A stretch of 64,000 bases of DNA from a virus (lineage: Duplodnaviria > Caudoviricetes). The notes under the pieces are model-generated. The model did not search any database and was not told the origin of the DNA. It worked only from the letters and a program-made list of their open reading frames with translations. Below, in pieces: positions 5,131-64,000 of this stretch. The stretch lies in the IMG/VR virus record IMGVR_UViG_3300044630_000280, positions 2,131-66,130 of that record. The stretch is one strand, 5' to 3'. The position numbers and the translations under genes are program-made. Each line of letters starts with the position of its first letter. Position 1 is the first letter of the stretch.

Positions 5131-5378
5131 GCATGAGGATTGGATTTGATTAAGGCAACTGGCGGGAACCACTAGCCCCAGTCCTCAGTCGTGTTGGTAC
5201 TAAGAAGCCTGAGAATTAGGAAGTTGTATTTGTTTACAGCAAAAAAGCGATGGGAATCCTTTTCCCTAGTTCTCAGACTTGTTAGACTAGCCCAGCCGGA
5301 GGTGGCGCATATAACACCGGCAGTGGGAGCTAAGCCCTTCCTTTCCGTATTTAGTAGTACTAGGCTTAGTGATCCCAC
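5131..5378 (+). ncRNA. Putative structured leader/ncRNA of four consecutive hairpins
   Basis: Stems 5134-5143/5178-5187, 5209-5220/5265-5276, 5295-5299/5317-5321, 5323-5336/5363-5378 with G-U pairs, in a 317-bp gap downstream of promoter-like TAGAAT (5107-5112). Confidence 0.6.
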
Positions 5379-5401
5379 ACCTATAATTAAAAGGAGCTGA
5401 T

Positions 5402-6705: not shown

Positions 6706-6730
6706 GTAACTGTCCCGCACGTAGCGGCTT

Positions 6731-6752
6731 GGGGGGCTTGCCCCCCTTTTTT
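6731..6752 (+). terminator. Rho-independent terminator
   Basis: GGGGGG-CTTG-CCCCCC followed by TTTTTT. Confidence 0.85.
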
Positions 6753-6766
6753 ACCCCTATAAAAAC

Positions 6767-9806: not shown

Positions 9807-9886
9807 AACGGCTTTTAGTTAGCTCCTTTTAGTCGTTTATTCTCCTTCACAGAGAACTTTGCCCCCGGTACGTCCGGGGGTTTTTT
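9807..9886 (+). ncRNA. Candidate anti-RBS small RNA (three hairpins)
   Basis: TATACT at 9794-9799; stem AACGGCT/AGTCGTT (9807-9813/9831-9837) with loop containing GTTAGCTCCTTTT; second hairpin TTCTC/GAGAA; terminator hairpin. Confidence 0.65.
9861..9886 (+). terminator. Rho-independent terminator at the convergence of the replication and structural blocks
   Basis: GCCCCCGG-TACGT-CCGGGGGT then T-tract. Confidence 0.85.
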
Positions 9887-15800: not shown

Positions 15801-17027
15801 GAGCGTAGCATCTTTGTTCAATCCAATAGCCGACTTATCAACGGCAAACTGCCCCGTAGTAGTAAAGTATTCGCCGGGTAGTTCTTTCTTGAGTGTGTTA
15901 CCTAAGAAGTCTTTAAGCTGGCTAGTTGGTACACCTTGTGTAGCTCTGCGGATTTGATCTAACTCAAACTTCAAACCTAAGCGTTCACCAGCAACTTCAA
16001 AGCTAGCAAACAAGCCAGCACGTGATGCAGCATCAGCACCATCTAAACCCTTAGCCCTACCCTCTGCGTACTCTTGACCAAACGAGTTTACAAACATGCT
16101 GCTAAGTACTAATGCTGAACTACCAGTCATAGCACCGCCAACCATAGCAGGTAACTGCTGAGCAATAGAACTAATAGCCCCTTCAGCCATACGACCTAGA
16201 TACTGTTTGTTCTGCCCCATTGATTGGATTTGATTGCGGGACTCAGCGGCTCTCTTAGCAAACCCTGCAGCGTATTCATCTGCACCTACTAAGTCAGAGA
16301 TAGCTTGGTTAACACCAACTGCACCTTGAATATAACCTTCCAATGCAGCTTTAGCACCACGCATACCTAGCGAAGCGTTCTCATATTTTTTCTGAGTTTC
16401 AAAATCAAACTGGCTAGGTTCTGCTACACCTTGCTGTGACATGAACTTAGACTCACCACCCGGGGCTACACCTGCTTCTGCTGCTTGTTCTGCAGCTACT
16501 GCGGCAAACTCAGGCTTCTCACCTTTAGCAATTAACTCGCGCTCACGGGCTTCTTTACGAGGGTCAAACTTTTCTAATGCTTGGTTTTGTGGTTTTGCAT
16601 AACGCTCAGCACGTTCACGGGCTATATCACCTATGACACCGGGTTGTCTTTCAAGTACTGCACGACGTGCGGGGGATGCAGCGTCATAGCTCTGTTGAAT
16701 ACTACGACGTACCTCTGGTTTAACTGGGAGAGTTGAAGTCTTATCTGGAGTGCCTTTGAACCCAGTCATCACACTACGTTCAGGTCCAGCTACCTCCATG
16801 ATAGATGAACCAAGATCACCACCCATAGCATCAGAGGTGGCGAAGTCTTCAGTAGGCTTAGCTTCTTTTTTAGCAGCTGCCTTAGATTCTGCTTTAGCTT
16901 CTTGCTTTGCCGCAGCTGGTTTTACAGACGGTAGAATATCAGTTTCGATAGCCTTAATAATATCTTCTTGTGACATATCGTCAGGAAAATTAACCTGACC
17001 TACACCCTCTACGTTTACACGTGGCAT
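9885..17027 (-). CDS. Giant (2380 aa) internal virion/ejection polyvalent protein with zincin-like HEXXH motif
   Basis: Last gene of the structural operon; VLHEAMHA...QEFYAYG; low-complexity linkers and hydrophobic segments. Confidence 0.75.
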   Translation of the reverse strand: MPRVNVEGVGQVNFPDDMSQEDIIKAIETDILPSVKPAAAKQEAKAESKAAAKKEAKPTEDFATSDAMGGDLGSSIMEVAGPERSVMTGFKGTPDKTSTLPVKPEVRRSIQQSYDAASPARRAVLERQPGVIGDIARERAERYAKPQNQALEKFDPRKEARERELIAKGEKPEFAAVAAEQAAEAGVAPGGESKFMSQQGVAEPSQFDFETQKKYENASLGMRGAKAALEGYIQGAVGVNQAISDLVGADEYAAGFAKRAAESRNQIQSMGQNKQYLGRMAEGAISSIAQQLPAMVGGAMTGSSALVLSSMFVNSFGQEYAEGRAKGLDGADAASRAGLFASFEVAGERLGLKFELDQIRRATQGVPTSQLKDFLGNTLKKELPGEYFTTTGQFAVDKSAIGLNKDATLGDYLEQMADTTVQTLMQSGMMTAGTKGVGALTGKFAGKKEEVPDLNRIKETLSNTKGLDEQEGTVEVGPLTPDSERYTGRADQDATLGAITQTPAPPTNLALEKTRNEAIETEPPAPTPVDPLAALQSARNEGIETEPPVTPTATLPKDLAGAKPRYSYGDKGFELKFESDIDRAAYIAAQPNPSKRDADYLNFVMQNTGMSEDEVRAHGKDIRGLIKTLAKTGEAGTTLVIPAMTAAQAQAQPTAPKAAEPTPIDPEQLTALTQDFMVKGFAEDDAQMLAEQMLKDSNVGRVGRVLERDVAEDEQRTVEGKAERAEQQILGGDNVTTEPPAFVTQPSTDQYGDGLPSEQQLPAGGTSGPIARGLDASRRLVGQFDSRDEREQDSLDANKQRVQSQVSQAFNREAYPDLGVQLGADWVRQTLARNPTPEEYQDAAYARLEELNGRAPEFSQPAKETPRVAETPKAVEAKEERQEAPKPAAPAVNKKEVEQTARGGWFELPDAERLELQGDLQFLKDSGRTITVNNIPEEIRAKLSSAALINIKSALDQDVDATIAALTPSSKTEPAPLELESTRNEELEVEPPEVTSVAKSEAAVDREVKKRAPGGGRKKSETAKTTEERRQQVNEINQFTRDVKTLINVANKFAQRQEFGTFATQEELDAKEEQRVNKLEQMRAELYRLAQSKNPQTGYVLAKDYIRGLKPAELARAKNVYESRKAAALKPQAARSTVKAEVTEQTPYEAEQQLDMQPDPIFKKFKTLKDALLHVLSSANPIEQMLAARLLQPDNLGTVNTVGFRVVESDDKDIPSDIKSELDSDAVGYFVPTSKDNMVYVRGESYGENEQGINSEIVLHEAMHATGSKKIAFAQLAIEQGQPVEPKLASAVAELQMLMEKAKAAFDALPRGERNFKLNHLNKAGAFTDIQEFYAYGLTDPTMKEFLLTKVPGTTTKTSGFDTFVDILLKLFGIDPKVQSGLKDLVLISHEIMGAKEPSGKQLLSMADTALRQKAKSKKTDVDTAIDKLKAGKTAEERLNALGSLSKVARDPSLWSDYIKLKWKYMNPEKLDVMLRASTTNRLYRIAKEIGVGEDSINDIQKGIEEKNAFRMRTIHKVEDIVRGWVKLKGKESQRVSDLMHVSTMAQVDPAVNKSDAKLNAVWNSLSDKAKQVYIDARDFYTDHYNLYRGLLNQRIANANITGPAKQMLMDEVRKLYETGAKLSPYFPIMRYGKYWATLGKGENKQFIMREAGQERDFLMDEYVKEQNMKGDRRTKDQMIKDGDIKLGQDMQSLQREAMQSSEILKKLFTMVDGITATDTATKEEIKKDIFTMHLVAMPEGTFRKQFMPRQNTAGYSRDAMRNFIVMGNRFANQLANIKYAPKIRNGISGARASIEKNPNKARMEMFINRIAARAEEELNPPEMDTVAEKIARTATKSAFIWQMTSIKSAVAQQFSVITHAMPVMWKHFGYGKTTAEMMRMARDAYKQVGVTSKDAKGNVIYTAPSIGSSSIVRNNPDLVRAFRALRESGVQDATRTMDLANRKKTASENYSPVISTVETLMTAPFHFGERMSREITFMSAFSLAMDKFKSEPDHNKRVNKSIDLALEITKESLFDYSDANTPELMRSTPVRVAAQYRKFQVFNVEFLCRNFMEIFSSLPKEQRMGALKAFTGTLGMTALLTGIRGTFMYSVVMGIIQGMINLIRMAGDDDDELELWQTNFKKYFENVWLPEMFGEPTIGGVPLSELMLTGTIDNLTGYDISSSLSMDFWFTDESPPSDWGNFVADTLVDWGGASVGLVDTWAKGVKDAQNGDWVKAFEKWTPAMFRGLLTDVRYTQEGARTGSLQIIKEAAEFTKAQLAMQALGYKTKGLAERQKDIFAYNNAKQKITTQRADIIKQIERSAELDKDERFQAMIDKAVRFNSMYPNPELTIEFADIERAFERRLKLLQGNVRGITPELKFADLLDLQDRTEKLLDEESQ

Positions 17028-51784: not shown

Positions 51785-53365
51785 TTAATAATATGCTTTA
51801 CTTCTCTGTGACTTGAAAAATTTTGGCTCGTCCGGCTCGTCACTTGGTAACCGTATGAACCCACCTTGTCTAAATCGTGCTAATGCTAGTGTTGTTGCAT
51901 CAACTAAGTCATCATGTTCGCCTGACGGGAAGGACGCAATCTCATCTACCAGCTCTTCAGCCCATCTTGTATCTGGAACCCATACTTTACCTGACGCTAT
52001 TAAGTCAGAAACTGCATTTAATCGACTAATCTTATCTTGACCTTTGCCCGGACTGAACTCCATCGCAGGTATGCCCATCGCTCTAAACTCATAAATTAGA
52101 GGAGCGCCTGAAGCTTTCTTCTCAATCAGTATGTTATCAGGTTCCCAATCTTTGTAATGCTCAAATGCCGTCTTTTTAAGCTCAATCCATTCCATTCGCT
52201 CTTTAAATGCGTTCAACAGAATGATATTTGCCTGCCCATCATCCTCATCGTTGTAAAAAATACCCCATGTTGTACACGCAGAATAGTCGGCGCGGGTGTT
52301 TTTCTCGAACGCAGTATCCCATGTTTGGAGGATGTAATCACATTGTGGGGGATGTTCACTAGGCCACTTCTTCCACCACTCTCTTTTTATAATTGCGGAC
52401 GAGTCTGAGGTGGGTTGTTGCTGATACTGAGCCATCCATTTGCCGTTCGGCAGTTCAGTATGTAGCTTTTCTAGCTCATCAATCGACCAAAACTCAGGCC
52501 AGAGGGGATTTCCAGACGGGAGAATCGCGGGAAACTCAATAACCTCCCATTCATCACCGCCCCGTGAGGCACTGGATTTAATCACTTGACCTGTTAAATC
52601 ACGTAACGACCACCTAGTCATCACGATTACGATGGATCCACCCGGTTGCAGACGCTGCCTCGGTCCGGATGTGTACCACTCATAAACCTTATCGTATATC
52701 TCTGGGTTGACTTGGGCTAGTGCAGCCTCTTGTTCACTGTGTGGGTCATCAATTATTAGGATATCTGCGCCCTTACCGGTTACAGCACCGCCCACACCGA
52801 TAGCGAAATAGTCACCACCTTTACTAGTATTCCATCGTCCTGCTGCTTTTGAGTCTGCTTGTAGTGCTAGCTCTGGGAAGATTTTTTTGTACGCTTCCGA
52901 GTCGACGAGGTTACGGACTTTTCGACCGAATCCGACTGCGAGTTCTGCTGTGTGCGACGTTTGGATAACTTTTTTGCCCGGGTATTTTCCGAGGAACCAT
53001 GCTGGGAGGAGATAGGAGGCAAATTCACTCTTGGTGTGTCGGGGTGGCATATTGATGATAAGACGCTTACATTCACCTCTAGCCACTCTTTCAAACGCTT
53101 CAGCCATTCTCGCATGATGTCTACCTCCAATAAATGTGGGCCATACTTCTCCAACAAAGGACAAGAATTTATCCTGTGCTAACTCTTTACGCTTTAATTC
53201 TTGTAGGGTCTCCAGCTCGACCAAAAGCTGACGCTGCTCCTGCTCTGACAACAGAGGGAGTATCTGGGGTATATCTTTCAACGAGACGCTACTAAGTAGG
53301 CTCTGTTTCTGGGTCTGGGTCATCTGTGCTTGGGTTTGGATCAAGCCTTGGATCTGGGTCGGCAA
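51785..53365 (-). CDS. terL: Terminase large subunit
   Basis: INMPPRHTKSE, LIIDDPH, VMTRW, WDTA, HDDLVDA; exact start uncertain. Confidence 0.92.
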   Translation of the reverse strand: MPTQIQGLIQTQAQMTQTQKQSLLSSVSLKDIPQILPLLSEQEQRQLLVELETLQELKRKELAQDKFLSFVGEVWPTFIGGRHHARMAEAFERVARGECKRLIINMPPRHTKSEFASYLLPAWFLGKYPGKKVIQTSHTAELAVGFGRKVRNLVDSEAYKKIFPELALQADSKAAGRWNTSKGGDYFAIGVGGAVTGKGADILIIDDPHSEQEAALAQVNPEIYDKVYEWYTSGPRQRLQPGGSIVIVMTRWSLRDLTGQVIKSSASRGGDEWEVIEFPAILPSGNPLWPEFWSIDELEKLHTELPNGKWMAQYQQQPTSDSSAIIKREWWKKWPSEHPPQCDYILQTWDTAFEKNTRADYSACTTWGIFYNDEDDGQANIILLNAFKERMEWIELKKTAFEHYKDWEPDNILIEKKASGAPLIYEFRAMGIPAMEFSPGKGQDKISRLNAVSDLIASGKVWVPDTRWAEELVDEIASFPSGEHDDLVDATTLALARFRQGGFIRLPSDEPDEPKFFKSQRSKAYY

Positions 53366-53900: not shown

Positions 53901-53905
53901 GCCCG

Positions 53906-53936
53906 ATTATATAGCATAAATAATAATACGTGTCAA
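53906..53936 (-). promoter_or_regulatory. Late-operon promoter, TTGACA-19 bp-TATAAT, apparently leaderless
   Basis: Perfect hexamers with 19-bp spacer; ATG 5 nt after TATAAT; no SD. Confidence 0.6.
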
Positions 53937-53945
53937 AAACGATTT

Positions 53946-54124
53946 GGGACTCCTACCCGGGGGGTGTTTCTGGGAACGATGTTGCGTAAGGTTAGCAAAA
54001 AAAGTGAAGGGGGTGGGGGTATGTAAGACAATGTTAGGGAAGTTATGGGGAGTGGTATTGGCTGTGCAGATTAGGGTGTATGTAGAACGTGGGACTCCTT
54101 CCTGCCCATGTTGGGGGGTGGGGG
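53946..54124 (+). other. G-run-rich non-coding segment between divergent late and early blocks
   Basis: Eleven runs of 3-6 G; GGGACTCCT at 53946 and 54091. Confidence 0.55.
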
Positions 54125-54260
54125 TTAGCTATGCCACCAGCTTTGCTTCGTTATGCCATACCCTCAGTTGTGACTAACGATGTTGCCTTTGCTTTTGATG
54201 TTGTCTTTGCAGGCAAGCCCCGCAGGGAAATTTTGTTCTTATTATTGCTTGCGTATCTGT

Positions 54261-54289
54261 AAGACAATTAAGCCTTTATTTGATATAGT
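54261..54289 (+). promoter_or_regulatory. Early promoter candidate
   Basis: AAGACA-17 bp-TATAGT with extended TG; a TGTAAG box overlaps the -35. Confidence 0.5.
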
Positions 54290-54295
54290 AGATTC

Positions 54296-54740
54296 ATGGC
54301 AGCAAACAAGGCGAATCACCCGCTAGTGCATAGGTGATGTAGGGTTAGTCAGTACACCGAAATAGTACTGTCAGGCTAGCGGTTCTGTAATGGGGCAAAT
54401 TTAGGCTAGTGGATATAAAGAGTATCTAGCGAAACACAAGCGGCTTATTGTATAGGGTTGCGAGATAGTGGCTAGATAACATGATGCGTGTAGAAGTGAC
54501 AACAAGATCACCGGCTCATCAATTTATATCTTGTGAGGTGCATATATAGAGTGCATTGCCTTAGGGGTAATGTAGCAGGGCTTTGTATATCGTGCCAATA
54601 ATTAGCGGTTTAGAGCCGCGTTATTAAAATCACTACATTGACGTTATTTTCGGCTTGCTTAGCAGGTGAGCCGGATAACGGGATGAGTCAAGGCGCATTG
54701 TCTAGTTCTCATCCTCTTATCAATCAAATAACGTTAAGGA
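54296..54740 (+). ncRNA. Putative large structured leader/ncRNA
   Basis: At least 8 complementary stems of 6-9 bp in 450 nt lacking a credible ORF. Confidence 0.5.
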
Positions 54741-54748
54741 AAACTATC

Positions 54749-55243
54749 ATGACAGCAAATTTACTCACTAAGTCCGAAGTCACCGAGTTAGCTAAGTCCG
54801 TTGCAGGGCGCGGCAAGTCACTCAATCGTGACATTCAGAAACTTGCAGCAATGGCAATAGGTTACGCCAACATTCATGGCGATGTAACCGTTGCTCAAGA
54901 TATATATGCACAGTTATGTGTAAACAAGGCTTTGCGCTTAAAGTCATTCGTTGCCTATTTAGAAACACATGGCAAATTAGAGTATGACAAGTCAAGCAAG
55001 AATTTTATCTACCGTAGACGTGACGATGTAGAAACAGATGTAATGTCATTGTTTATCTCGTTGTCAGATTGTCTATGGTACGAAGCGCTTAAGGAAGCTG
55101 AGCCGGTGTCAATGTATGACTTGTCCGCTAAGATTGCAGCGCTCGTCAAGCAAGCCGAGAAAATGGCAGCGCAAGAATCGACAACCGTTGCTCACCTCGA
55201 ATTATTAGAGCCACTACGTAGCTTAGTAGTAGCAACCAACTAA
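54749..55243 (+). CDS. First early gene, hypothetical protein
   Basis: AAGGA RBS before ATG 54749; DIQ....HGDVT motif. Confidence 0.8.
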   Translation: MTANLLTKSEVTELAKSVAGRGKSLNRDIQKLAAMAIGYANIHGDVTVAQDIYAQLCVNKALRLKSFVAYLETHGKLEYDKSSKNFIYRRRDDVETDVMSLFISLSDCLWYEALKEAEPVSMYDLSAKIAALVKQAEKMAAQESTTVAHLELLEPLRSLVVATN

Positions 55244-55294
55244 GGCGAAACGGGCGCAAGCCCGTCTAACGGTCAAGCCGTTACTGATGAGCCT
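55243..55294 (+). ncRNA. Type II hammerhead ribozyme
   Basis: AGGC-GAAA-CGGGC(GCAA)GCCCG-TC^-TAACGG(TCAAG)CCGTTA-CTGATGA-GCCT; full catalytic core and three stems. Confidence 0.92.
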
Positions 55295-55308
55295 AAATCT
55301 AACAATGT

Positions 55309-55669
55309 CATACAATGTAAGGGAAAGTGTTGCTTTGTAAGAAACTTTTGGTTGCTTTGTAAGAATCTTACAATACAAAACTCCCTTTAGAATCAATGGG
55401 TTAGGCTTATATGCCATACAATGTAAGGTTGTAAGAACTTTTTTAGAGTGACTTTGGGAAATTGAAGTCGATCGAAGCATCTCGCAAGTCAAGATAAGCA
55501 CAAGCCTCACGAGGGCTTAATTTCTAAAATTCTCTTACATTATTACAATATAATAGATATAGTAGGTACACCAAGCTATAACCCGCATAAACACTAGGTT
55601 TTGCTTTGTAAGAAAAAGTTCTTACAATACCCCCCGATTTTCTTACAATCTTACAATACATTTCTTACA
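55309..55669. repeat. Cluster of 12 TGTAAG/CTTACA boxes (iteron/operator-like)
   Basis: TGTAAG at 55316, 55336, 55358, 55422, 55430, 55607; CTTACA at 55367, 55534, 55621, 55642, 55650, 55664. Confidence 0.8.
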
Positions 55670-55684
55670 TTACAAGGAGCTACT

Positions 55685-55849
55685 ATGAAAGCATCAGATA
55701 TTCTCATGCTAACCGGCACTATATTGCATGTCGTGTTCTTAGTATCAGTTATATTTTTTCCAATGCCATTATTCCCTGCCGCATTGCTTACTGTGTTAGG
55801 CATAGCGTATCAGGGCTATGGTGTCTTTATGTCCTACGAAGGGAGCTAA
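55685..55849 (+). CDS. Small membrane protein
   Basis: AAGGAG RBS; two hydrophobic segments. Confidence 0.65.
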   Translation: MKASDILMLTGTILHVVFLVSVIFFPMPLFPAALLTVLGIAYQGYGVFMSYEGS

Positions 55850-55851
55850 GC

Positions 55852-56016
55852 ATGATAACGGAAGAACTGTTTAAGCAATGGGTAGGACGTGAGCCACAAG
55901 ACGATGACCTTGATCGTTGCAATTGTAGTAAGGCGGGGCAAGCAGGGCATGGGCAATGCGGTTGGAATAATAAACAGAACTTACCTGTGTTCATGGTAGG
56001 TAGTGAGGAGGTGTGA
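55852..56016 (+). CDS. 54-aa hypothetical protein (not in ORF track)
   Basis: GGGAGCTAA RBS; MITEELFKQWVGREPQDDDLDRCNC..AG..GH.QCGW. Confidence 0.65.
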   Translation: MITEELFKQWVGREPQDDDLDRCNCSKAGQAGHGQCGWNNKQNLPVFMVGSEEV

Positions 56017-56017
56017 G

Positions 56018-56179
56018 ATGGGCGAACTATTAAACAAAGCATTCATCGATGAGCTAACCGATGAGGAAGAAGCGGTACTCGCAAGGTTAGAGCAAGAGTG
56101 GCTGCAAAGATGTGCACTCGCAGAGTCAACGGAATGGCATGACCCTAAACCTATTATCAAAGCAACATCACTTAACTAG
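56018..56179 (+). CDS. 53-aa hypothetical protein (not in ORF track)
   Basis: GAGGAGG RBS; fills the gap exactly. Confidence 0.55.
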   Translation: MGELLNKAFIDELTDEEEAVLARLEQEWLQRCALAESTEWHDPKPIIKATSLN

Positions 56180-56187
56180 GAGCTAAC

Positions 56188-56478
56188 ATGGGCTGGAGAT
56201 ATGGATTAAAGCGTGAGATGTGGGGCAACACAATCGAGGGTTACAAGGTGATAGAAGTGTTTGACTTTGACCGCCCTGCATTACAGCGTTCATGGTGTGA
56301 GACCGCACCGTATAGCGACACCGAAGATGAGATGTTGACTGTGCTTGACCGCATGAAGAAAGACATCCAACGTTTCAATATTGACATCAGCACACCCGAT
56401 GTGGTCGAGGACTTAGAGCGTAGGCTGTGGTGGTGGGACGATGCACCTGCCAAGATATACCCAAGCGAGGAGGTATGA
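56188..56478 (+). CDS. Hypothetical early protein
   Basis: AGGAGCTAAC RBS. Confidence 0.7.
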   Translation: MGWRYGLKREMWGNTIEGYKVIEVFDFDRPALQRSWCETAPYSDTEDEMLTVLDRMKKDIQRFNIDISTPDVVEDLERRLWWWDDAPAKIYPSEEV

Positions 56479-56479
56479 G

Positions 56480-56698
56480 ATGCGACCATGTTTATTATGT
56501 GGCGAGGAAGAACTGTCAACTGCACGATGGGCACTAGGTTACAAGACCTGCCTACCATGTGGTGACTTAGCAGCAAAGGAAGCTAGGAAGTCGTGGACTA
56601 TCTTAACCCCGCATAAGCAGGGAGCTATGTTCTTTACGGCTGAGTCTGCGTTCGAGATGGCTAAGGGTATCAACAATAAGGGAGGGTTAATTAAATGA
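56480..56698 (+). CDS. C4 zinc-finger protein (DksA/TraR-finger-like)
   Basis: CLLCG....RWALGYKTCLPCG; GGAGG RBS. Confidence 0.65.
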   Translation: MRPCLLCGEEELSTARWALGYKTCLPCGDLAAKEARKSWTILTPHKQGAMFFTAESAFEMAKGINNKGGLIK

Positions 56699-56829
56699 CA
56701 ATGACCTGTAAGAGCGCAAGACAAAGAGTAGATAGGTTAAACAAAACGCAACAGCAACGCAGACTGTTTGACTTAGAAAAGAACCGTCGTGTGGTGCATT
56801 CAAGATGGATTAGGAGGGAGCAAGCATGA
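56695..56829 (+). CDS. 44-aa basic hypothetical protein
   Basis: ATGA overlaps at both ends; GGAGG upstream. Confidence 0.45.
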   Translation: MTMTCKSARQRVDRLNKTQQQRRLFDLEKNRRVVHSRWIRREQA

Positions 56830-57008
56830 TAGACCCGAAGTTAATAGAAGAACTGAAGTTTGTAATGGACGGCATGGCTAACGAAGCGTTCTATGAATGG
56901 GAAGAAACCCACAACGTAGAAGGTCTAAGCGATAGAGATAGGGAGCTATGGTGTGAGGGCTACAAGATAGGGCGGCTAGTAGAAAACTTTGCAAACAGGG
57001 AGAATTGA
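56826..57008 (+). CDS. Hypothetical early protein
   Basis: GGAG RBS; 60 aa. Confidence 0.6.
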   Translation: MIDPKLIEELKFVMDGMANEAFYEWEETHNVEGLSDRDRELWCEGYKIGRLVENFANREN

Positions 57009-57009
57009 T

Positions 57010-57228
57010 ATGACGTGGATAAATGTAGATGTAGATATGAGCGAGTTCAACGATGAAGAACTTGTTATTGAAATGCAAAGACGTGGCTATGTAGTGCAGG
57101 ACAGCGACGAGCCACAAGATAAGGAAGAACTGAACCGTATCTACGAAGCGTTGTATCTAGGTAAGCAGGAGGAAGCGATGCGACGCATGAAAGAATATGT
57201 TTGCAATAAGGTAGGTAGGCTGTTATAA
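57010..57228 (+). CDS. Hypothetical early protein
   Basis: GGGAG RBS; DVDMSEFNDEELV.E..RRG. Confidence 0.65.
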   Translation: MTWINVDVDMSEFNDEELVIEMQRRGYVVQDSDEPQDKEELNRIYEALYLGKQEEAMRRMKEYVCNKVGRLL

Positions 57229-57281
57229 TGTAAGACGATGTAAGAAGTATATAAACCACAACAACACAACAAGGAGCTAAC

Positions 57282-58349
57282 ATGGCTGAAATAAATTTCG
57301 GTAAGACCGTCACACTCAAACAAGCTGCGAAGATTATCGTAGCATCCCCAAAGAATCGTTACTTACTACGTGGTGAGCCGGGCATTGGCAAGTCAAGTCT
57401 AACCGCAACCCTCAAAGAATTATTACCTCGACATCACGTTGCATATATGGACGTGCCCAACATGGACTTAGGTGACATCGCCATGCCCGTAGTGGACAAG
57501 GACACCAAGACTACACGTTACTATCCCAATGCACGATTCATGTTTCACACAGGCGAGCCAGTCATTGTCAATCTTGACGAGTTCACCAAAGGCGCAGAGC
57601 CAATCAAGAACATGCTGCACCCACTACTCGAAGCACACAATCCTAGACTAGGTGACGTGCCAGTACATAACGAGTCAATCATATTCCTTACAGGTAACTT
57701 AGCAACCGATGGTGTCGGTGACAATCTCAAAGCACACAGTCTTAACCGTATCATCCCATTGAACATCGAGAAGCCGAGCTTTGAAGAGTGGGCAGAGTGG
57801 GCTATGAATCATGGCATTGCACCAGAAATCTTAGCGTTCGGTCGTATGATGCCGCAGATATTTGCAAGCTATACCGATGCAAGCCAGAAAGAAAATCCTT
57901 ACATCTACAATCCGCTTAAACCTACACAAGCATACGTATCCCCTCGTTCACTCGAACGTGCAAGTAACATCGTCAACATCAGACAGCAGCTAGATAACGA
58001 AAGCGTAATAGCTGCGCTAACAGGAGCGATAGGCGAATCAGCAGCACGTGACTTCCAAGCCTACCTCGAATACTCAGACCAACTACCTACATGGGAGTCG
58101 ACAATCAAAGACCCTAAGGGTGCGCTTGTACCTAAGTCCGCAGGTGCAGCAGCAATCGTCGTGTTCGGTGCAATCCAGAAGGTAGACAAGACTACGATCG
58201 AGCCATTCATGCAGTACTTAGAACGCTTCACCGAAGAATGGCAAGCAGCGTTCGCAATCAACATCGCTAAGTCCAAGACCAAGCAACCCGTTGCATTCAG
58301 TTGCAGAAAGTTTAGCGAGTGGGTAGCTAAGAACGAGGACTTACTGTGA
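57282..58349 (+). CDS. MoxR-like AAA+ ATPase
   Basis: Walker A GEPGIGKS, Walker B VNLDE, TGN sensor, SPRS. Confidence 0.88.
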   Translation: MAEINFGKTVTLKQAAKIIVASPKNRYLLRGEPGIGKSSLTATLKELLPRHHVAYMDVPNMDLGDIAMPVVDKDTKTTRYYPNARFMFHTGEPVIVNLDEFTKGAEPIKNMLHPLLEAHNPRLGDVPVHNESIIFLTGNLATDGVGDNLKAHSLNRIIPLNIEKPSFEEWAEWAMNHGIAPEILAFGRMMPQIFASYTDASQKENPYIYNPLKPTQAYVSPRSLERASNIVNIRQQLDNESVIAALTGAIGESAARDFQAYLEYSDQLPTWESTIKDPKGALVPKSAGAAAIVVFGAIQKVDKTTIEPFMQYLERFTEEWQAAFAINIAKSKTKQPVAFSCRKFSEWVAKNEDLL

Positions 58350-58576
58350 GAGAGCCTAGATATTTCATAGCATGGGTGAGTGAGGACAATGTAGGTAAAC
58401 CCAACATGCCATATCTAGCAGCACGTAAGGAGTATATGTACCGAGTATTCAGGGAGGACTTTGACAACAGCAATGCTGCACCTATTACAGAAGCAATGAC
58501 GTATGAGGAAGCAGAAGCAAAGAGAAAAGAAATCTTATTACTAACTAAAGGTAAGGAGCTAGCATGGATAGCATAG
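58346..58576 (+). CDS. Hypothetical protein
   Basis: GTGA overlap with ATPase stop. Confidence 0.55.
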   Translation: MREPRYFIAWVSEDNVGKPNMPYLAARKEYMYRVFREDFDNSNAAPITEAMTYEEAEAKRKEILLLTKGKELAWIA

Positions 58577-59757
58577 ACAGGGAAGAACGTAAGGTCAAGA
58601 AGGTCAAGATCAGTCTAATGCGTGAGCCTAAGTTTGCATTGTGGCAGGGCGCAATGATGATCGGCAAGACTAGCATCGAGGACGATATACCTACGGCTGC
58701 AACCAACGGTCGTGATGAGTTCTATGGGCGGGAGTTTGTTAAGGACTTGACCGAGAAGGAACTGGCATTCGTTGTTCTTCACGAATGTATGCACAAAATT
58801 TACCGGCACTTAACTACGTGGCGAAAGCTGTACGACGAGGACAAATACCTAGCTAACGCAGCTTGTGACTACGTTATTAACCTTGAGCTATTCGACATGG
58901 ACAAGGAAGGCAAGTATATCGCTAGACCTATTAAGAACGGCAAGCCGATAGGTTTACTTGATGAGAAGTATCGTGGCATGAACACCAAGCAAGTCTATGA
59001 CCTACTTAAGCAGCAGCAAGAAGAAGGCGGGGACTGTGGTTGTAACTTTGACGAGCATGACTGGGACGGTGCTGAGAACATGACCGATGCCGAGAAGAAA
59101 GAGTTGTACAAGGAAGTCGAGCAAGCTATACGGCAAGGCGCAATGACACACCAGAAACTTAATGGTAGTGGCGCAGGTGGTATGAGTCGTGAGCTAGGTG
59201 AGTTGCTTGAACCCAAAGTTAATTGGCGTGAGCAGCTACGTGAGTATGTTAAATCAATCTGTGCAGGAAAGGACGCATCATCATGGAGACGAGTAAACCG
59301 CAGGTACATTGGGCAAGACGTGTATATGCCCACGTTAATCAGCGAACGAGTAGGACACATAGTAATCGGGATAGATACAAGTGGGTCTATCGGGGGCAAG
59401 GAATTAAACGACTTCCTTTCTGAAGTCAAGGGTGTAGCTGAGGAAGTATCACCTGAGAAGGTTGACTTGTTGTATTGGGACGGGGAGGTAGCAGGACATG
59501 AAATGTACGATGCTGCAACGGTGGGTTCGATCATTGATTCTACTAAGCCAAAGGGTGGCGGTGGCACTTCACCTTCTTGTGTCAGCCAATATCTTAAAGA
59601 TAAGGGAATCAAACCAGAATGCACAATCATGCTCACCGATGGTTATGTTGGTTCGGATTGGGGTAGCGATTGGGAATCGCCAGTCCTCTGGGTTATCGTG
59701 GGTGGCAACACTGCCACAGCACCTAACGGCAAAACTATTCACATCAAGGGGAACTAA
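58564..59757 (+). CDS. Metallopeptidase plus VWA domain protein (DUF2201-like)
   Basis: TAATNG, LHECMH (HEXXH), NAACDYVIN; MIDAS DTSGS, GGGT, LTDG. Confidence 0.88.
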   Translation: MDSIDREERKVKKVKISLMREPKFALWQGAMMIGKTSIEDDIPTAATNGRDEFYGREFVKDLTEKELAFVVLHECMHKIYRHLTTWRKLYDEDKYLANAACDYVINLELFDMDKEGKYIARPIKNGKPIGLLDEKYRGMNTKQVYDLLKQQQEEGGDCGCNFDEHDWDGAENMTDAEKKELYKEVEQAIRQGAMTHQKLNGSGAGGMSRELGELLEPKVNWREQLREYVKSICAGKDASSWRRVNRRYIGQDVYMPTLISERVGHIVIGIDTSGSIGGKELNDFLSEVKGVAEEVSPEKVDLLYWDGEVAGHEMYDAATVGSIIDSTKPKGGGGTSPSCVSQYLKDKGIKPECTIMLTDGYVGSDWGSDWESPVLWVIVGGNTATAPNGKTIHIKGN

Positions 59758-59758
59758 G

Positions 59759-60007
59759 ATGAGCAAAGTCGTGGTAGAGATGGGCTATAAGTCATTCATT
59801 ATGGATACTAAAGATGGTGTAGCACTGATGGAAGTACTAGGTAAGGCTGAGATATACGAAGAGAAGTATCACAGAGATGAGGGAGCAACAGAGTCACGCT
59901 ATACATATCATGTGTACCCGATGGATGTTCGTAGTGGTATAGCTATGAGGTTGATGAGTGATGAGTTGTATAAGTTGTACAAGATAGCAGGTAAACCACA
60001 AGACTAA
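59759..60007 (+). CDS. Hypothetical early protein
   Basis: ATG follows the VWA stop. Confidence 0.7.
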   Translation: MSKVVVEMGYKSFIMDTKDGVALMEVLGKAEIYEEKYHRDEGATESRYTYHVYPMDVRSGIAMRLMSDELYKLYKIAGKPQD

Positions 60008-60031
60008 TTAAACACAACAAGGGATCTAATC

Positions 60032-60889
60032 ATGGGTATATCATCAAGCGCAGTATTGGTAGAGTTAAACGTATCTAACTGGGGTGCAAGTAAGTTAGAC
60101 CGTAACGTAGCAGATACGGTGAATGCAAATCACAACGCAGCACACGATGCAAGCAAGGTGTACAAGAATCTGACCGCAGGTTCGACACTATGTTCTGACA
60201 TCGGCAAGTACGCAGCAAAGATTCGTCTGTATCACAATGACATGACTATGCCGTGGGCATCCAAAGGTGCAAGGCTTCTACCTACGGGCTTAGTCTTAGA
60301 GTATAAGCAGCACATCAATAACATGAAGATCACATACGAAACAATGTGTAACAAGTTCTTCAATGAGTACCCGACAATCGTATCGAATGCACAGAATCAC
60401 TTAGGTGCATTGTTCAAAGCAGATGACTACCCAACGCTTGACGAGGTTAAGCATAAGTTTGGTTTCAAGATAGTGTTCTCGCCATTGCCTGAAGCAGGTG
60501 ACTGGAGATTAGATGTAGCTAACGAGGACTTGCGTGAGTTAGCCGCAAGCTATGAAGCAGACTTCAATGATCGCTTAGCCGAAGCAGTACGTGCCCCGTG
60601 GGATAAGTTGCACAAAGAATTAACAGCACTATCAACTAAGTTGAATGATGAGGGTGCTGACCCTGACAAGAAGAAACGCTATCACGACAGCTTGATTGAG
60701 AATCCTCAAGAGCTATGCCGTCTACTTACTCACTTAAATGTAACCAATGACCCTAAGTTAGAGGAAGCACGACGTGACTTAGAACGTGCGCTAGTAGGTG
60801 TAGATATCGAGGAGATCAAAGAGTACGAGACTGCACGTAGCGATGTGAAGAAGCGTGTCGATGCAATACTCGAGAAGTTCGATTGGTAA
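60032..60889 (+). CDS. Hypothetical protein (DUF3150-like)
   Basis: TMPW..KGARLLP...LGALF...DYP...LNVTNDP.L. Confidence 0.65.
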   Translation: MGISSSAVLVELNVSNWGASKLDRNVADTVNANHNAAHDASKVYKNLTAGSTLCSDIGKYAAKIRLYHNDMTMPWASKGARLLPTGLVLEYKQHINNMKITYETMCNKFFNEYPTIVSNAQNHLGALFKADDYPTLDEVKHKFGFKIVFSPLPEAGDWRLDVANEDLRELAASYEADFNDRLAEAVRAPWDKLHKELTALSTKLNDEGADPDKKKRYHDSLIENPQELCRLLTHLNVTNDPKLEEARRDLERALVGVDIEEIKEYETARSDVKKRVDAILEKFDW

Positions 60890-60912
60890 TGTGGAAGAAA
60901 AGGAGAGCTAAC

Positions 60913-61278
60913 ATGGGATACCGAAGCGATGTAGCAGCAGCTATATATACAAACGATGAAGAACACGTACCACTACTTAAGCTATGGCTAACAGCTAACT
61001 TCCCTATGAAACAGTTTGAGAAGAGTATGCGATGGTTCAAGTATGGGGTAGTAATTGAAGAGCATGATGTTAAATGGTATGACAGCTACGACGAGGTTAA
61101 GTTATTTAATGCAGCAGTTAGTAAGTTTGTAGAAGAGTTCTGTGGGGCTAAGGGAGCGTTCGATGGTGCGTATGAGTTCTTGCGTATAGGTGAGAGCGAG
61201 GATGACATAGAACATGAGTGTCATGGTGACTATGATTACTTACTTAGTTGTGAACGTTCAATTTGTATAGATGTTTAA
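60913..61278 (+). CDS. Hypothetical early protein
   Basis: MGYRSDV...VKWY...FLRIGE..DD. Confidence 0.7.
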   Translation: MGYRSDVAAAIYTNDEEHVPLLKLWLTANFPMKQFEKSMRWFKYGVVIEEHDVKWYDSYDEVKLFNAAVSKFVEEFCGAKGAFDGAYEFLRIGESEDDIEHECHGDYDYLLSCERSICIDV

Positions 61279-61289
61279 GGGAGAATAAC

Positions 61290-62171
61290 ATGAGCTATAG
61301 AAACAGTGGTATAAGCCGCTTGACTAACTATGCACAAGCGAAGGAATGGTATGAAGCAGTAGAGCCTATCAGAGGTAAAGGTAGTAACGCAGGTGTTAAG
61401 CCACTAGGACATCGTAACCGTCCGCACTTCCAAATACTCAAGGGGGCTGATGATGAGATCAAGTGTAGGTTATATCAGACTGATGTAGTTACGTTCTTTC
61501 CTGATGGTCGTATCTTTATTAAGGATGCAACCTATATCACACAAACCACAGCTAACTTTATTCAGGATGTATTGGGTATACGTGCAGCAGTACAAGATCA
61601 CGACATAGTAATTGGACTGCATGGTAATAGCTATCGCTTGCGTGATGGTATGGTGTTAGCACGTGATGAGTGTGGTTTGTTAAAGGTACTCAAGGTTGAT
61701 AAGGCTTATGTACACCAAGTTAATCGTAAGGCTATGAGTACACTACGTAAGAGTGTCAAAGACTTTATGAACTATCTCAACGGTAGCATCAAGGTACGAG
61801 ATAGAGGTTTGTTTAACGAGGAAGAGAAGATAGAGCTATTAAAGCATCTTAATCTACCTGACTATAGTTTTGGTCTTGCTTCCGTACCTACATGGCGCAA
61901 TGAGACAGATGAGTTGCGTAAAAGATTGGCGCAGTTCTTTGATATGGTTAAGAGTGGAGACATGGAGAACTGGTATAGGGCTTCTTGTTGGATGGCTTTC
62001 TCGCAATTCACGTGGATTAAAGAAATTTACCTAACACCAAAACTAGCTAAGACTACTATGGATAACTTCATAATGGCAGCGCATCCAGAAGCATTAATTA
62101 AAGTAGAAGTACCGGAAGGTACGGTTAAACGTGACCGCTACAGACTAGTAGCACTAATGAGTGGAGCTTAA
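61290..62171 (+). CDS. Hypothetical early protein
   Basis: AGGGAGAATAA RBS; long ORF. Confidence 0.75.
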   Translation: MSYRNSGISRLTNYAQAKEWYEAVEPIRGKGSNAGVKPLGHRNRPHFQILKGADDEIKCRLYQTDVVTFFPDGRIFIKDATYITQTTANFIQDVLGIRAAVQDHDIVIGLHGNSYRLRDGMVLARDECGLLKVLKVDKAYVHQVNRKAMSTLRKSVKDFMNYLNGSIKVRDRGLFNEEEKIELLKHLNLPDYSFGLASVPTWRNETDELRKRLAQFFDMVKSGDMENWYRASCWMAFSQFTWIKEIYLTPKLAKTTMDNFIMAAHPEALIKVEVPEGTVKRDRYRLVALMSGA

Positions 62172-62172
62172 C

Positions 62173-63033
62173 ATGGCATATAAATACCCGAATGTAAAGT
62201 CATCAAAATGGGATGTGGCGAAAGGTGAGCATATAGAAATAGACGTACATGAACACATGATGCCATTCATAGATGCCCTAGCCGTAAAGTATCCGCACTG
62301 GGAGTTTGTCTCCGCTAATATTAGATATACAGGCGAGGATAACAATACACCAAAAGCATGTAGCTTCAAAGTATTCAACGATGAGAACCCACGAGTAGAA
62401 ATAGGTGATGTTAAATCAAGCTACAAGTACGATAAGAATGGTAAGAACGTACCGTCGTATGTTGTGTACAACAGTAGGCTAGCAATGGACAGGGAGCGTG
62501 GGCATACATTTGAGACTATCAAGTTACCCCTAGCTATGAAAGCTGTAAATAAATACTTTAACCCTCCGCCCGTTGTAGAAGTACTTGAACATGTACTTGC
62601 ACTAGGTGTTGGGCAGTATAGACACGCAGTAGCCCACAAGGAAAGACTAGCACAAAATACAGAGTACCAGCTAGACGCATCGCAGAAGGCTTTCATTAGA
62701 GCTAATTGGGAGTCATACAAAGCTAGTGTTGATCCTACTACGTTAGAGGTAGTGGAGAGATATGAAACTCAGGTAGATGAATGTAGACGCATTGCTAATA
62801 TAGAAAACAATAATAATTTTTATGCAGTTGTCATACACAAAGATCAATATGTGGTATCCTTTAACGACAAGATAACTACCTACAATGTAAACACTATCCC
62901 GATTGAACTAAGAGCACAGCTAGGTTTACTTAAGTTAGTAGAGGAAGGTGACTTGTTAGAAGATGTAGGTGTACGTACCAAACAGGGTTTCCTAGTATTT
63001 TTACCTAAGGATAAGGAACATGAAGTGTCCTAA
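62173..63033 (+). CDS. Hypothetical early protein
   Basis: GGAGCT RBS; long ORF. Confidence 0.75.
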   Translation: MAYKYPNVKSSKWDVAKGEHIEIDVHEHMMPFIDALAVKYPHWEFVSANIRYTGEDNNTPKACSFKVFNDENPRVEIGDVKSSYKYDKNGKNVPSYVVYNSRLAMDRERGHTFETIKLPLAMKAVNKYFNPPPVVEVLEHVLALGVGQYRHAVAHKERLAQNTEYQLDASQKAFIRANWESYKASVDPTTLEVVERYETQVDECRRIANIENNNNFYAVVIHKDQYVVSFNDKITTYNVNTIPIELRAQLGLLKLVEEGDLLEDVGVRTKQGFLVFLPKDKEHEVS

Positions 63034-63340
63034 GTGTGGCGATGAGCATACTAAAGTAACGCAGACTGAGAAGCGTGGCACGGGGGTGTGGCGCAGACGC
63101 AAGTGCGTGGAGTGTAGTCTTAACTTCCAATCATTTGAGGATTTGTATACCCCCAAACAGCGGACACAGAAAGCACCTGTACTACCCAAGATGCATAGTG
63201 ATAAGAAGCAACCCGCAATGCCTAAGAAAGACAAAGAGCTAATCAAGAAACTTAAGACTGAGATTAGACATAAGAACGAAGATAGAAGAAACAAAGTATC
63301 AGACTACTATATCGAAGATGATTTCGACGATATTTATTAA
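63020..63340 (+). CDS. NrdR-type zinc-ribbon protein
   Basis: MKCPKCG...T.V......RRRKCVEC...F.SFE. Confidence 0.75.
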   Translation: MKCPKCGDEHTKVTQTEKRGTGVWRRRKCVECSLNFQSFEDLYTPKQRTQKAPVLPKMHSDKKQPAMPKKDKELIKKLKTEIRHKNEDRRNKVSDYYIEDDFDDIY

Positions 63341-63354
63341 CCAAAGGAGCTAAT

Positions 63355-63669
63355 ATGTTAACCCAGCAACAACAGATATTTTTACAAGGCGTAGCTAATC
63401 ACGGAGTAGAAGAGATCGACAAGGTAGTACGAGTACTGCGCCTAGCAACACCAGAGAAGTTCTTCCATGAGTTTAAGCGTAATGATGGTCGTGTCATCCC
63501 TGATGCCGCTATGAAAGAGCGTAAGTTCTTTGACCAACCTGCATCCCTTAGTGCAAAGAATGGTGACTATGCTAGCCACGAGGTAGACATAGTTGATGGG
63601 CATGAGCGTTCCGCAATACACGAAGCACGTTCAATCAAAATCTTACGTAGAGGGATGGGATACAAATGA
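63355..63669 (+). CDS. Hypothetical protein
   Basis: AAAGGAGCTAA RBS. Confidence 0.7.
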   Translation: MLTQQQQIFLQGVANHGVEEIDKVVRVLRLATPEKFFHEFKRNDGRVIPDAAMKERKFFDQPASLSAKNGDYASHEVDIVDGHERSAIHEARSIKILRRGMGYK

Positions 63670-64000
63670 ACGAAGAACTCGATACAGAGCTAGACCTTGA
63701 AGATGAAGATTTAGATGACAAGGAAGAGAAGCTATTCAACAAGGAGATAGAGAGACAAAAATCTTTAGCCCTTGAAGAATCTAAAGTTGCACGTGATGGG
63801 TTCATAGCGTGGTATCAAGAGACTATAGCTAAGGACGTAGCGTGGGAGCACCCTGCTACTAACTGGATGTACAACGCATGGATTGCATCACATGGTGTTA
63901 AGAAGTGGGAGTCGCAAGAGAGTATAGATAAACGCAACCAGAAGAGAACAAAGCAGAGGGAGACTGCTGCTAAGAACAAAGCACTAAGAGATAAACAATG
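63666..64000 (+). CDS. Partial hypothetical protein running off the window
   Basis: ATGA overlap; open to the window end (MNEELDTELDLEDEDL...). Confidence 0.6.
   Translation, partial: MNEELDTELDLEDEDLDDKEEKLFNKEIERQKSLALEESKVARDGFIAWYQETIAKDVAWEHPATNWMYNAWIASHGVKKWESQESIDKRNQKRTKQRETAAKNKALRDKQ

Follow-up and report, generated by a model that had tools for sequence, protein, structure and literature searches.

What occupies the roughly 450 bases between a predicted promoter and the early gene ORF1 in the genome of an uncultivated tailed phage? The DNA analyzed here, referred to as the window, comprises 64,000 bases out of a virus record of 66,130 bases that is judged complete (IMG/VR record IMGVR_UViG_3300044630_000280, positions 2,131 to 66,130). 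An original prediction had proposed that positions 54296–54740 specify a densely paired non-coding RNA that heads the early operon and carries mutually exclusive pairings near the ribosome-binding site. Comparison with homologous loci bore out a densely paired RNA on the plus strand at this position. The features on which the argument turns are as follows.

54296–54748, plus strand: structured leader RNA of about 440–450 nucleotides (nt), in which a variable middle separates a 5′ core from a 3′ platform (folding, MAFFT alignment and RNAalifold)
54261–54266 and 54284–54289, plus strand: predicted σ70-like promoter, −35 element AAGACA and TG-extended −10 element TATAGT (consensus scan)
54736–55243, plus strand: Shine-Dalgarno sequence AAGGA (54736–54740) and open reading frame ORF1 (ATG 54749, stop 55241–55243, 164 residues), a phage early protein

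The comparisons establish a conserved, non-coding, multi-helix RNA of the plus strand that is fused to the ribosome-binding site of ORF1, contains a two-state element and has a ribozyme-like or terminator-like 3′ boundary. Our preferred reading, to which we assign a probability of about 0.5, is that the leader is a new cis-acting regulatory leader or sensor for ORF1.

A Folded, Non-coding RNA of the Plus Strand

The leader lies between the promoter, with its −10 element at 54284–54289, and the ribosome-binding site of ORF1. The minimum free energy of positions 54296–54749 (454 nt) is −139.6 kcal/mol, compared with −119.25 ± 6.19 kcal/mol for 100 shuffled sequences (z = −3.29), and one of the 100 shuffles was as stable. 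The folding energy of a single sequence is suggestive only, and the comparative evidence is decisive. When RNAalifold was applied to 12 homologues, it predicted 101 pairs, of which 69 show compensatory changes; the covariation term was −17.3 kcal/mol. These figures run counter to the outcome that the original prediction had listed as fatal to it, namely a folding energy no better than that of shuffles together with no covariation. The upstream half of the same intergenic region (53901–54295), which is conserved in sequence at least as well as the leader, served as an internal negative control. There, 11 of 54 predicted pairs covary, and the covariation term is −2.1 kcal/mol.

The structure model was derived from alignments and tested on MAFFT alignments that had not been fitted to it. 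As a control, the 3′ partner of each helix was slid by 1–3 columns. Because the homologues come from related phages, the shuffle statistics overstate their independence, a problem from which the slid controls are free. Within the helices, G-U pairs outnumber A-C pairs by 136 to 11 in the 5′ core and by 24 to 7 in the 3′ platform. With G-U so far above A-C, the folded molecule must be the plus-strand RNA and not the minus strand or duplex DNA.

No open reading frame runs across the leader; the longest stretch without a stop has 45 codons in the window sequence, and among 14 homologues no such stretch is conserved. A small upstream reading frame (ATG 54297, 13 codons) was considered and dropped, as it is deleted in L006 and L008–L010 (homologous loci are cited by L numbers). 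The leader is G-rich and C-poor, with a G/C ratio of 1.34–1.60 in 14 of 16 sequences. Its fold comprises at least ten helices, and many of its unpaired positions are invariant.

The search of Rfam for large phage RNAs that the original prediction had suggested matched no family. None of the 4227 models of Rfam 15, which include riboswitches, ribozymes, GOLLD, ROOL, OLE, raiA, HEARO, T-box and 6S, gave a match with E ≤ 10 overlapping 54296–54748. The leaders of 13 homologous loci gave no match at E ≤ 1, and a scan of the whole window likewise gave none for the leader. A match to GcvB at 54131–54281 (E = 1.9) is weak, lies 5′ of the promoter and was taken as chance.

Many candidate structured RNAs from viromes have already been catalogued, and full-text searches of the literature gave no account of such an RNA. 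The closest survey, an intergenic screen of IMG/VR by Fremin, Bhatt and Kyrpides (2023; PMC10690425), comprises 8,495 candidate RNAs of 29–151 nt. Single hairpins of the leader could be among them, and the 440-nt unit as a whole lies outside the size range given there. The leader is thus best described as a new family of a known general kind, a structured leader or large non-coding RNA, for which the structural evidence is strong.

The 5′ Core

The helices of the 5′ core, and a small hairpin that follows it, are listed below.

54315–54320 with 54333–54338, plus strand: P1 hairpin; 89% of cells paired, with two-sided changes in 7/7 pairs
54348–54355 with 54365–54372, plus strand: P2 hairpin with a conserved CGAAA-type loop; 7/8 pairs covary
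54375–54380 with 54405–54410, plus strand: P3a; 98.6% of cells paired, 4/6 pairs covary
54382–54386 with 54392–54396, plus strand: P3b, inside P3a, with an invariant GUAAU loop; 97.1% of cells paired, 3/5 pairs covary
54423–54430 with 54471–54478, plus strand: P4a, the outer stem of a long hairpin (54423–54478); 7/7 pairs covary
54440–54446 with 54455–54461, plus strand: P4b, rich in G-U (GGCUU/GGGUU); 4/13 pairs covary
54496–54511, plus strand: P5, a small hairpin after a conserved GAAG with a loop resembling AAYAAGA; GTGA/TCAC 71% paired, 3/4 pairs covary (an imperfect MAFFT alignment, and inspection)

The core proper extends over about 175 nt (54309–54484) and comprises P1 to P4. In a MAFFT alignment of 14 sequences, 90.4% of its cells pair, compared with 37–41% in the slid controls, and 32 of 46 pairs are changed on both sides, compared with 7–13. 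None of 500 shuffles reached the observed values. The stems covary freely, and the loops and junctions are nearly invariant (CUAGUGCAUA, UGUAG, CGAAA, UCAGG, GUAAU, UAGG, UGG, GAA//G and GGCUU/GGGUU).

The P1 loop has 12 nt, CGCUAGUGCAUA, of which CUAGUGCAUA is nearly invariant, and it carries a quasi-palindromic GUGCAU. Across P3 (54375–54410) the 3′ internal loop is a conserved A.A..UAGG, and the flanking UCAGG and UGG are conserved as well. P4a is separated from P4b by an invariant GAA//G internal loop (GCGAAAC // GUAGUGG), and four G-U pairs of the P4 hairpin are conserved in 12–14 of the 14 sequences. The weakest helix is P5.

Three further contacts were considered and dropped. A closing helix, GGCG/UGCC, changes from G-C to G-U only and is missing in sequences with the second type of middle domain described below. 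For a long-range contact between UCAGG and CCUGA there were too few sequences for a test. Lastly, the partners of a kissing contact between the P1 loop and a second GUGCAU are both nearly invariant and quasi-palindromic.

Two Exclusive Pairing States Next to the Ribosome-binding Site

The 3′ platform lies directly upstream of the Shine-Dalgarno sequence and is built from the following segments.

54641–54734, plus strand: 3′ platform (alignment, covariation and covariance model R2)
54641–54649, plus strand: segment A, ACGUUAUUU
54651–54657 with 54667–54673, plus strand: hairpin hp1
54674–54680, plus strand: segment B, GAUAACG
54681–54687 with 54708–54714, plus strand: hairpin hp2
54717–54721, plus strand: segment D, UUAUC in a U-rich run
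54726–54734, plus strand: segment C, AAAUAACGU

The platform ends one base before AAGGA (54736–54740). Segment B can pair with A or with D, and A can pair with B or, in the closer relatives, with C. In an alignment of 15 platform sequences, 14 of them distinct, 93.8% of cells are paired in the nested form (A:C with B:D) and 98.2% in the A:B form, as against 40–49% in the slid controls. A:B is paired in 98.8% of cells, and three of its six pairs covary, two of which lie outside the overlap with B:D; B:D is paired in 100%. The three alignment columns at the central base of B (34, 67 and 112) change together from A/U/A to G/C/G in 7 of the 14 sequences. A:C is paired in 83.6% of cells and is missing in four more distant sequences (L011, L021, L022 and L023).

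As B takes one partner at a time, both pairing states appear to be under preservation. The 14 distinct sequences thus display mutually exclusive, conserved pairings of the kind found in the expression platform of a riboswitch. In 15 of 15 sequences the B:D state, together with A:C where C exists, is the state of minimum free energy, and the A:B state lies 0.4–10.5 kcal/mol higher. The two states differ in an A/U-rich stretch of 30 nt immediately 5′ of the Shine-Dalgarno sequence, which includes the U-rich D and is either free or buried.

The individual stems of the original prediction were tested on the 12-sequence MAFFT alignment. Its claim of exclusive pairings near the ribosome-binding site held, with B pairing to A or to D and both pairings conserved. 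The local alternative CGTTAT..CGGCT/AGCCG..ATAACG, which is A:B with hp1, was paired in 98.8% and 95.9% of cells. GGATGAG/CTCATCC, corresponding to hp2, was paired throughout (100%, 7/7 pairs covarying), and ACGTTATTT/AAATAACGT, corresponding to A:C, was paired in 85% (4/9). Support was also found for CAGTAC/GTACTG, which is P2 (86%, 6/6), for TATCTAGC/GCTAGATA, which is P4a (79%, 6/8), for TGCATTGCC/GGTAATGTA (72%, 5/9), and for GCGG/CCGC with its flanking AATAA/TTATT (79% and 75%; 4/4 and 4/5).

Three proposed stems did not survive. CCGCTAG/CTAGCGG was paired in 64% of cells with none of seven pairs covarying; the bases on its 5′ side form the invariant P1 loop, and those on its 3′ side are engaged in P3a. 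ACAAGAT/ATCTTGT was paired in 48%. The long-range CCGGCTCA/TGAGCCGG was paired in 62% (3/8 pairs covarying), and TGAGCCGG is the 3′ strand of the local hairpin hp1. With that helix the proposed crossing long-range pseudoknot falls too.

A variable domain lies between core and platform.

About 54535–54630, plus strand: variable middle domain, type 1 in the window (MAFFT alignment and RNAalifold)

Its hairpins in the window are 54552–54560 with 54566–54574 and 54597–54608 with 54616–54625. The second GUGCAU motif mentioned above is situated at 54540–54545 and is present in most relatives; it is missing from L014, L016, L022 and L023. The domain exists as two unrelated versions, type 1 in the window and seven other sequences and type 2 in four of the 12 (L014, L016, L011 and L021). 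The type 2 module (ACCUGACUUGCUUAGGUGCAAGGU; for example at about 445–470 of L016) could form an H-type pseudoknot. One stem would join ACCU to AGGU and the second CUUGC to GCAAG, and the latter changes compensatorily in L011 and L021; the sequences are too few to judge.

Distribution of the Leader and Its Association with ORF1

A search with an alignment of the ORF1 family (45 protein clusters) led to 8 viral and 13 metagenomic loci, including one contig in both sets and two near-identical pairs. By blastn, the DNA 5′ of ORF1 is homologous in 13 of the 21 fetched loci, and 12 chosen sequences were aligned at full length. A covariance model of the 5′ core, R1, matches 15 sources at 121–181 bits, of which 14 are its own seeds. 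R1 also matches L020, where the element is cut by the contig end. Weak matches occur at the expected place and strand in L012 (19.1 bits, E = 7e-4), L013 (18.4 bits, E = 1e-3) and L026 (11.7 bits, E = 0.18). The corresponding model of the 3′ platform, R2, matches L013, which lies outside its seed, with 49.3 bits (E = 1.9e-9) and L026 weakly (E = 0.08); it has no match in L012, L024 or L025. The leader family thus consists of 15 clear viral or metagenomic loci, with weaker traces in three more. The RNA appears to have accompanied ORF1 down to about 38% protein identity, with much divergence.

Within the 64-kilobase (kb) window there is a single copy, with one R1 match and one R2 match. Scans with gapped-motif patterns returned 51 + 16 viral stretches and at least 120 genome stretches in each of two scans, and 80 loci of each genome scan were given to R1. 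No copy of the RNA away from an ORF1 homologue was found by R1 among 45 + 12 pattern-only viral loci or among 160 genome loci. Since all but the known ORF1-linked contigs failed R1, the pattern-only stretches are chance matches to patterns that were too loose for such large collections. The scope of the family is limited to one clade of about 20 contigs from an abundant, uncultivated phage lineage of freshwater and other environments.

The ORF1 protein belongs to phrog_1448 (E = 6.4e-24), a family without an assigned function, and matches no family in Pfam. Its AlphaFold2 (AF2) model has a mean predicted local distance difference test score (pLDDT) of 79 and is helical with a small β-hairpin; compared with folds in the PDB it gave no match at E ≤ 0.001. 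The neighbours of ORF1 in the Atlas are hypothetical viral proteins only. Among 185,579 prokaryote genomes no relative of ORF1 was found, and therefore there is neither a prophage copy nor a clue to the host. Distant homologues of ORF1 are early genes of phiKMV-like podoviruses. In three such phages (L197–L199) neither R1 nor R2 has a match. One of them, Yersinia phage phi80-18 (L197), has about 570 bases without an annotated gene (1284–1856) before the distant ORF1 homologue g02, likewise without a match to R1 or R2.

The relationships among the homologues are mosaic. In the closest relative (L001/L006) the flanks are 85–95% identical to the window and the 5′ core is 53–63% identical, with successive stems changed on both sides. 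L006 combines window-like flanks with the P1 of L019, L018 and L019 have a common P4 and different P1 hairpins, and L014 has a core equal to that of the window with a type 2 middle domain. The early region, including the leader RNA, thus shows what appears to be frequent exchange of modules between lineages. Accelerated evolution of the RNA relative to its flanks was considered and rejected; modular recombination explains the low core identity to L001 better, and the neighbouring reading frames are equally mosaic.

As a separate observation, the small early reading frames at 55750–57050 fall to 0–50% identity with L001, with insertions and deletions, between phages that are otherwise 85–95% identical.

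Predicted Ribozyme or Terminator-like Hairpin at the 3′ Boundary

Directly after the ORF1 stop codon lies a second structured element.

55243–55298, plus strand: type II hammerhead ribozyme (RF02276, 35.8 bits; gathering score 37)

The match has an E value of 6.6e-5 in 3 kb and of 0.0014 in 64 kb. The core elements CUGAUGA, GAAA and GUC are intact in the window, and cleavage is predicted after GUC near 55267–55269. RF02276 also matches L009 (2992–3053, 32.7 bits) and L014 (2999–3054, 30.4 bits). By eye, a hammerhead follows ORF1 in the window and 10 further loci (L006, L007, L009, L010, L014/15, L016, L018 and L019/20), with compensatory differences in stems I, II and III between the window, L006, L007, L009, L010, L014, L016, L018 and L019. 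At the same position, eight other loci (L008, L011, L013, L021, L022, L023, L024 and L026) carry a GC-rich hairpin followed by a T-run, also identified by eye. A terminator scan scored the hairpin of L021 on the plus strand. The element after ORF1 is ambiguous in L012 and L025.

This distribution suggests that the hammerhead and the terminator-like hairpin are interchangeable ways to make the 3′ end of the ORF1 mRNA. Since either would end the RNA after ORF1, leader and ORF1 together form a discrete predicted RNA of about 950 nt with a 3′-terminal hairpin. Perreault et al. (2011; PMC3088659) proposed that phage hammerheads cut long transcripts into gene-length mRNAs, and because such processing is already proposed there, the present hammerhead is an ordinary new member. 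It resembles the hammerheads described there in being of type II and in its intergenic position on a phage transcript. The likeness covers the boundary at 55243–55298 only and not the leader, and here the ribozyme alternates with terminator-like hairpins.

A gap of 380 bases follows (55300–55680; the next reading frame starts with ATG 55686). Exact TTGTAAGA octamers occur nine times in the window, and eight of these copies lie in the gap. They stand in both orientations and include the palindromes TTGTAAGAATCTTACAA and TTGTAAGAAAAAGTTCTTACAA; the reverse complement of TTGTAAGA contains a −10-like TACAAT. The octamer recurs after the hammerhead in L006, L007, L016 and L018. Octamers with one mismatch are found at 54021 (ATGTAAGA) and at 54257 (CTGTAAGA), the latter overlapping the −35 element of the leader promoter. 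The gap looks like an early promoter and/or operator cluster, and from this cluster of octamers and TACAAT motifs the later early genes appear to have promoters or operators of their own. The original prediction that the RNA heads the early operon was therefore half right. The RNA is a leader before an early gene, but the conserved unit is leader plus ORF1, and the genes downstream have their own promoter-like cluster.

Possible Function of the Leader

As a cis-acting regulatory leader or sensor, the RNA could work as follows. Host RNA polymerase would transcribe it from the promoter at 54261–54289. Since D and C are transcribed only after A, hp1 and B, the first pairing to form would be A:B, and the RNA would then refold into the more stable nested state with A:C and B:D, in which the A/U-rich stretch 5′ of the start site is buried. 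The 5′ core would be the binding platform for a factor that biases the choice of pairing, which may be the ORF1 protein, a host protein or a small ligand. In acting on access to the standby region, on attenuation at hp2-D or on stability, the platform would allow the leader to set the amount of ORF1 early in infection. The structured 5′ end and the 3′ hairpin would yield a stable, insulated message. A more specific form of this proposal, in which the 5′ core represents a hitherto undescribed class of RNAs that sense a ligand or a protein, or is itself a new ribozyme, and a lytic phage reads the state of its host in the first minutes, gating the immediate-early regulator ORF1, seems to us unlikely.

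Several points weigh against a regulatory leader. Its transcription is predicted, as are the promoter, the start site and the 3′ end. Neither modelled state pairs the Shine-Dalgarno sequence, and it is consequently not evident whether the output of a switch would be translation, attenuation or stability. The combination of hp2 and D was scored as intrinsic-terminator-like in L011 and was not scored as a terminator in the window, nor in L021. Since there are two alleles only (UUAU and UUGU), the joint variation of A, B and D may go back to one or two evolutionary events. P5 and the closing helix GGCG/UGCC are weakly supported. Finally, a leader of 440 nt with many invariant unpaired bases exceeds the needs of known cis-regulators and fits a stand-alone function equally well.

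Such a stand-alone functional RNA could be a ribozyme, an RNA-protein scaffold or a self-assembling ornate RNA that is co-transcribed or partnered with ORF1, and its 3′ platform would serve folding or release of the RNA and not the control of ORF1. We consider this somewhat unlikely. In its favor are the size and complexity of the leader, with about 440 nt, at least ten helices and many invariant nucleotides outside the pairs. The 3′ ends defined by a hammerhead or terminator are also in keeping with it, and in some relatives hp2 together with the U-rich D might set free an RNA of about 430 nt. The GUGCAU of the P1 loop could kiss, and a second motif of this kind is found in the middle domain of most relatives, although the four that lack it (L014, L016, L022 and L023) speak against such a contact. 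What argues for a tie to the gene is location: the RNA lies against the ORF1 ribosome-binding site in 15 of 15 clear cases, where A:C stops 1–2 nt short of that site, no copy occurs away from an ORF1 homologue (45 + 12 viral and 160 genome loci), and the window has no canonical terminator between the RNA and ORF1. The leader can also be compared with GOLLD, ROOL, OLE, raiA and HEARO. Like them it is large, has many helices and conserved loops, comes from phage or environmental sequences and does not reveal its function by sequence, but it has no Rfam match, and those RNAs are free-standing genes, often beside tRNAs, whereas the leader is fused to an mRNA and occurs in one phage clade.

The general description in the original prediction, a large phage non-coding RNA or a switch, remains apt, as the RNA is real, about 440 nt long, covarying and without an Rfam family, and has an alternative pairing 5′ of the Shine-Dalgarno sequence. 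The examples attached to it fare less well. Nothing was found in support of a decoy RNA, and a processive antitermination element (put-like or nut/boxA-like), with which the polymerase would read through the terminators of the early operon, is in our judgment quite improbable. The position next to a promoter, in the direction of about 19 kb of early and replication genes on the plus strand, would suit antitermination, and the terminator-like hairpin after ORF1 in eight relatives recalls the λ pL leader with N and tL1. However, the element after ORF1 weakens this idea. In the window and 10 loci the predicted hammerhead cleavage right after the gene would sever the RNA from the polymerase, and a discrete unit of leader and ORF1 argues against tethered antitermination; moreover, the downstream early genes have their own promoter-like cluster. 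Segment D of the window (CCUCUUAUCAA) loosely resembles the boxA consensus. This reading was dropped, because the letters are not conserved and D is GUAUUGUC or CUAUUGUC in L008–L010.

In put-type antiterminators the RNA has about 70 nt and two stem-loops, and it acts while tethered to the elongating polymerase. HK022 put is like the leader in being a cis-acting structured RNA just 3′ of an early phage promoter. The leader differs in being 6–7 times larger, with about 440 nt and at least ten helices, and in being predicted to be cut or ended after ORF1. At λ pL, an early promoter is followed by a structured leader with nutL, the N gene and the terminator tL1, and the leader autoregulates translation of N. 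The locus studied here has the same order of early promoter, long structured leader, small early gene and transcript end point. There is, however, no match in sequence or motif, and no relation between ORF1 (164 residues) and N was detected. Half of the relatives have a hammerhead in place of the terminator, and the leader has twice the length of that of λ and a far more strongly conserved structure.

The pairings could also act in DNA. They might mark an origin of replication or a packaging site, or form promoter hairpins in single-stranded DNA; we find this proposal barely credible. It draws on the situation of the element in a divergent control region beside the terminase genes, where 53901–54295 has direct repeats and G-runs typical of protein-binding DNA. 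Yet that repeat-rich DNA is a separate stretch without covariation, the promoter-like site points into the element and a ribosome-binding site follows it, and the 136 G-U against 11 A-C pairs, with some G-U pairs invariant, fit plus-strand RNA only.

Among known regulators, the leader also invites comparison with riboswitches and other sensor leaders. Like them it is untranslated and promoter-proximal, with invariant loops and junctions between covarying stems, exclusive pairings by the ribosome-binding site and a U-rich tract. It differs in that it matches no known Rfam 15 class, has about 150 nt of interchangeable sequence between core and platform and does not sequester its Shine-Dalgarno sequence in either modelled state. 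The pattern of invariant loops and covarying stems in the core also fits protein-binding RNAs and ribozymes, and the core is poorly kept in L012, L013 and L026. Such strong divergence (R1 scores of 12–19 bits in these three) would be unusual for a metabolite aptamer.

Very large, intricate RNAs with many invariant unpaired nucleotides are rare, and those that have been solved are mostly ribozymes, riboswitches or scaffolds. The leader marks the start of the early program of an uncultivated lineage, and it pairs a conserved alternative-pairing module with a 3′ boundary that is either a ribozyme or a terminator. Should the leader prove to be a sensor, it would reveal how early expression in a lytic phage is coupled to the state of the host. 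If instead it binds the product of ORF1, this would give a function to the widespread phrog_1448 family. A sensing core would make the element a phage-borne, riboswitch-like decision device, unusually large and modular, whose domains are swapped between co-circulating phages by recombination.

Genome Setting and Control Region

The minus strand from 53900 down to 9885 carries late and structural genes, among them the large terminase (51785–53365), a portal-like protein and a protein of 2380 residues. The early and replication genes on the plus strand (54749–64000, then 1–9628) include an AAA ATPase, a DNA polymerase, a helicase and a primase. No phage RNA polymerase was seen among the window proteins scanned. 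By terminase, the closest cultured relatives are DSL-LC04, 023Pt_psg01, the Pelagibacter phages HTVC027P and HTVC023P and the Planktothrix phage Pag-Yong1, all less than 60% identical, and the leader region is absent from them.

The divergent control region consists of 848 bases (53901–54748) directly 5′ of ORF1 and next to the terminase genes. The intergenic region had no blastn match in 50,697 phage records. A −10-like hexamer (TATAGT, TATAAT, TACAAT, CATAAT or TACATT) occurs at the same alignment position in all nine rows that reach it among the 10 closer homologues. Transcription is predicted from the position of the promoter to begin near 54296, which is a reasonable start.

In the upstream half of the region (53901–54295), GGGACUCCU..GGGGGGUG occurs twice, and there are several short direct repeats. 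Because it has almost no covariation despite its sequence conservation, it looks like protein-binding DNA and not RNA, and its elements are probably protein-binding sites that serve, for example, as late promoters, as an origin or in packaging. Two copies of GGGACTCCT(A/T)CC are followed by G-runs (GGGGGGTG and GGGGGGTGGGGG), and GATGTTGNCTTTGC, AACGATGTTGC and TGTAAGACAAT each occur twice as direct repeats. In the counterparts of this stretch in L011 and L021, the G-runs read as C-runs on the plus strand.

Two observations concern genes away from the leader. The C-terminal third of the 2380-residue protein (9885–17027, minus strand) matches phrog_10089, annotated as DarB-like antirestriction (E = 3e-55), and the protein may be injected or virion-associated. 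Positions 57282–59757 of the plus strand hold an early gene pair, which encodes a MoxR-like AAA ATPase (AAA_5) and then a protein with DUF2201 metallopeptidase-like and VWA-like domains.

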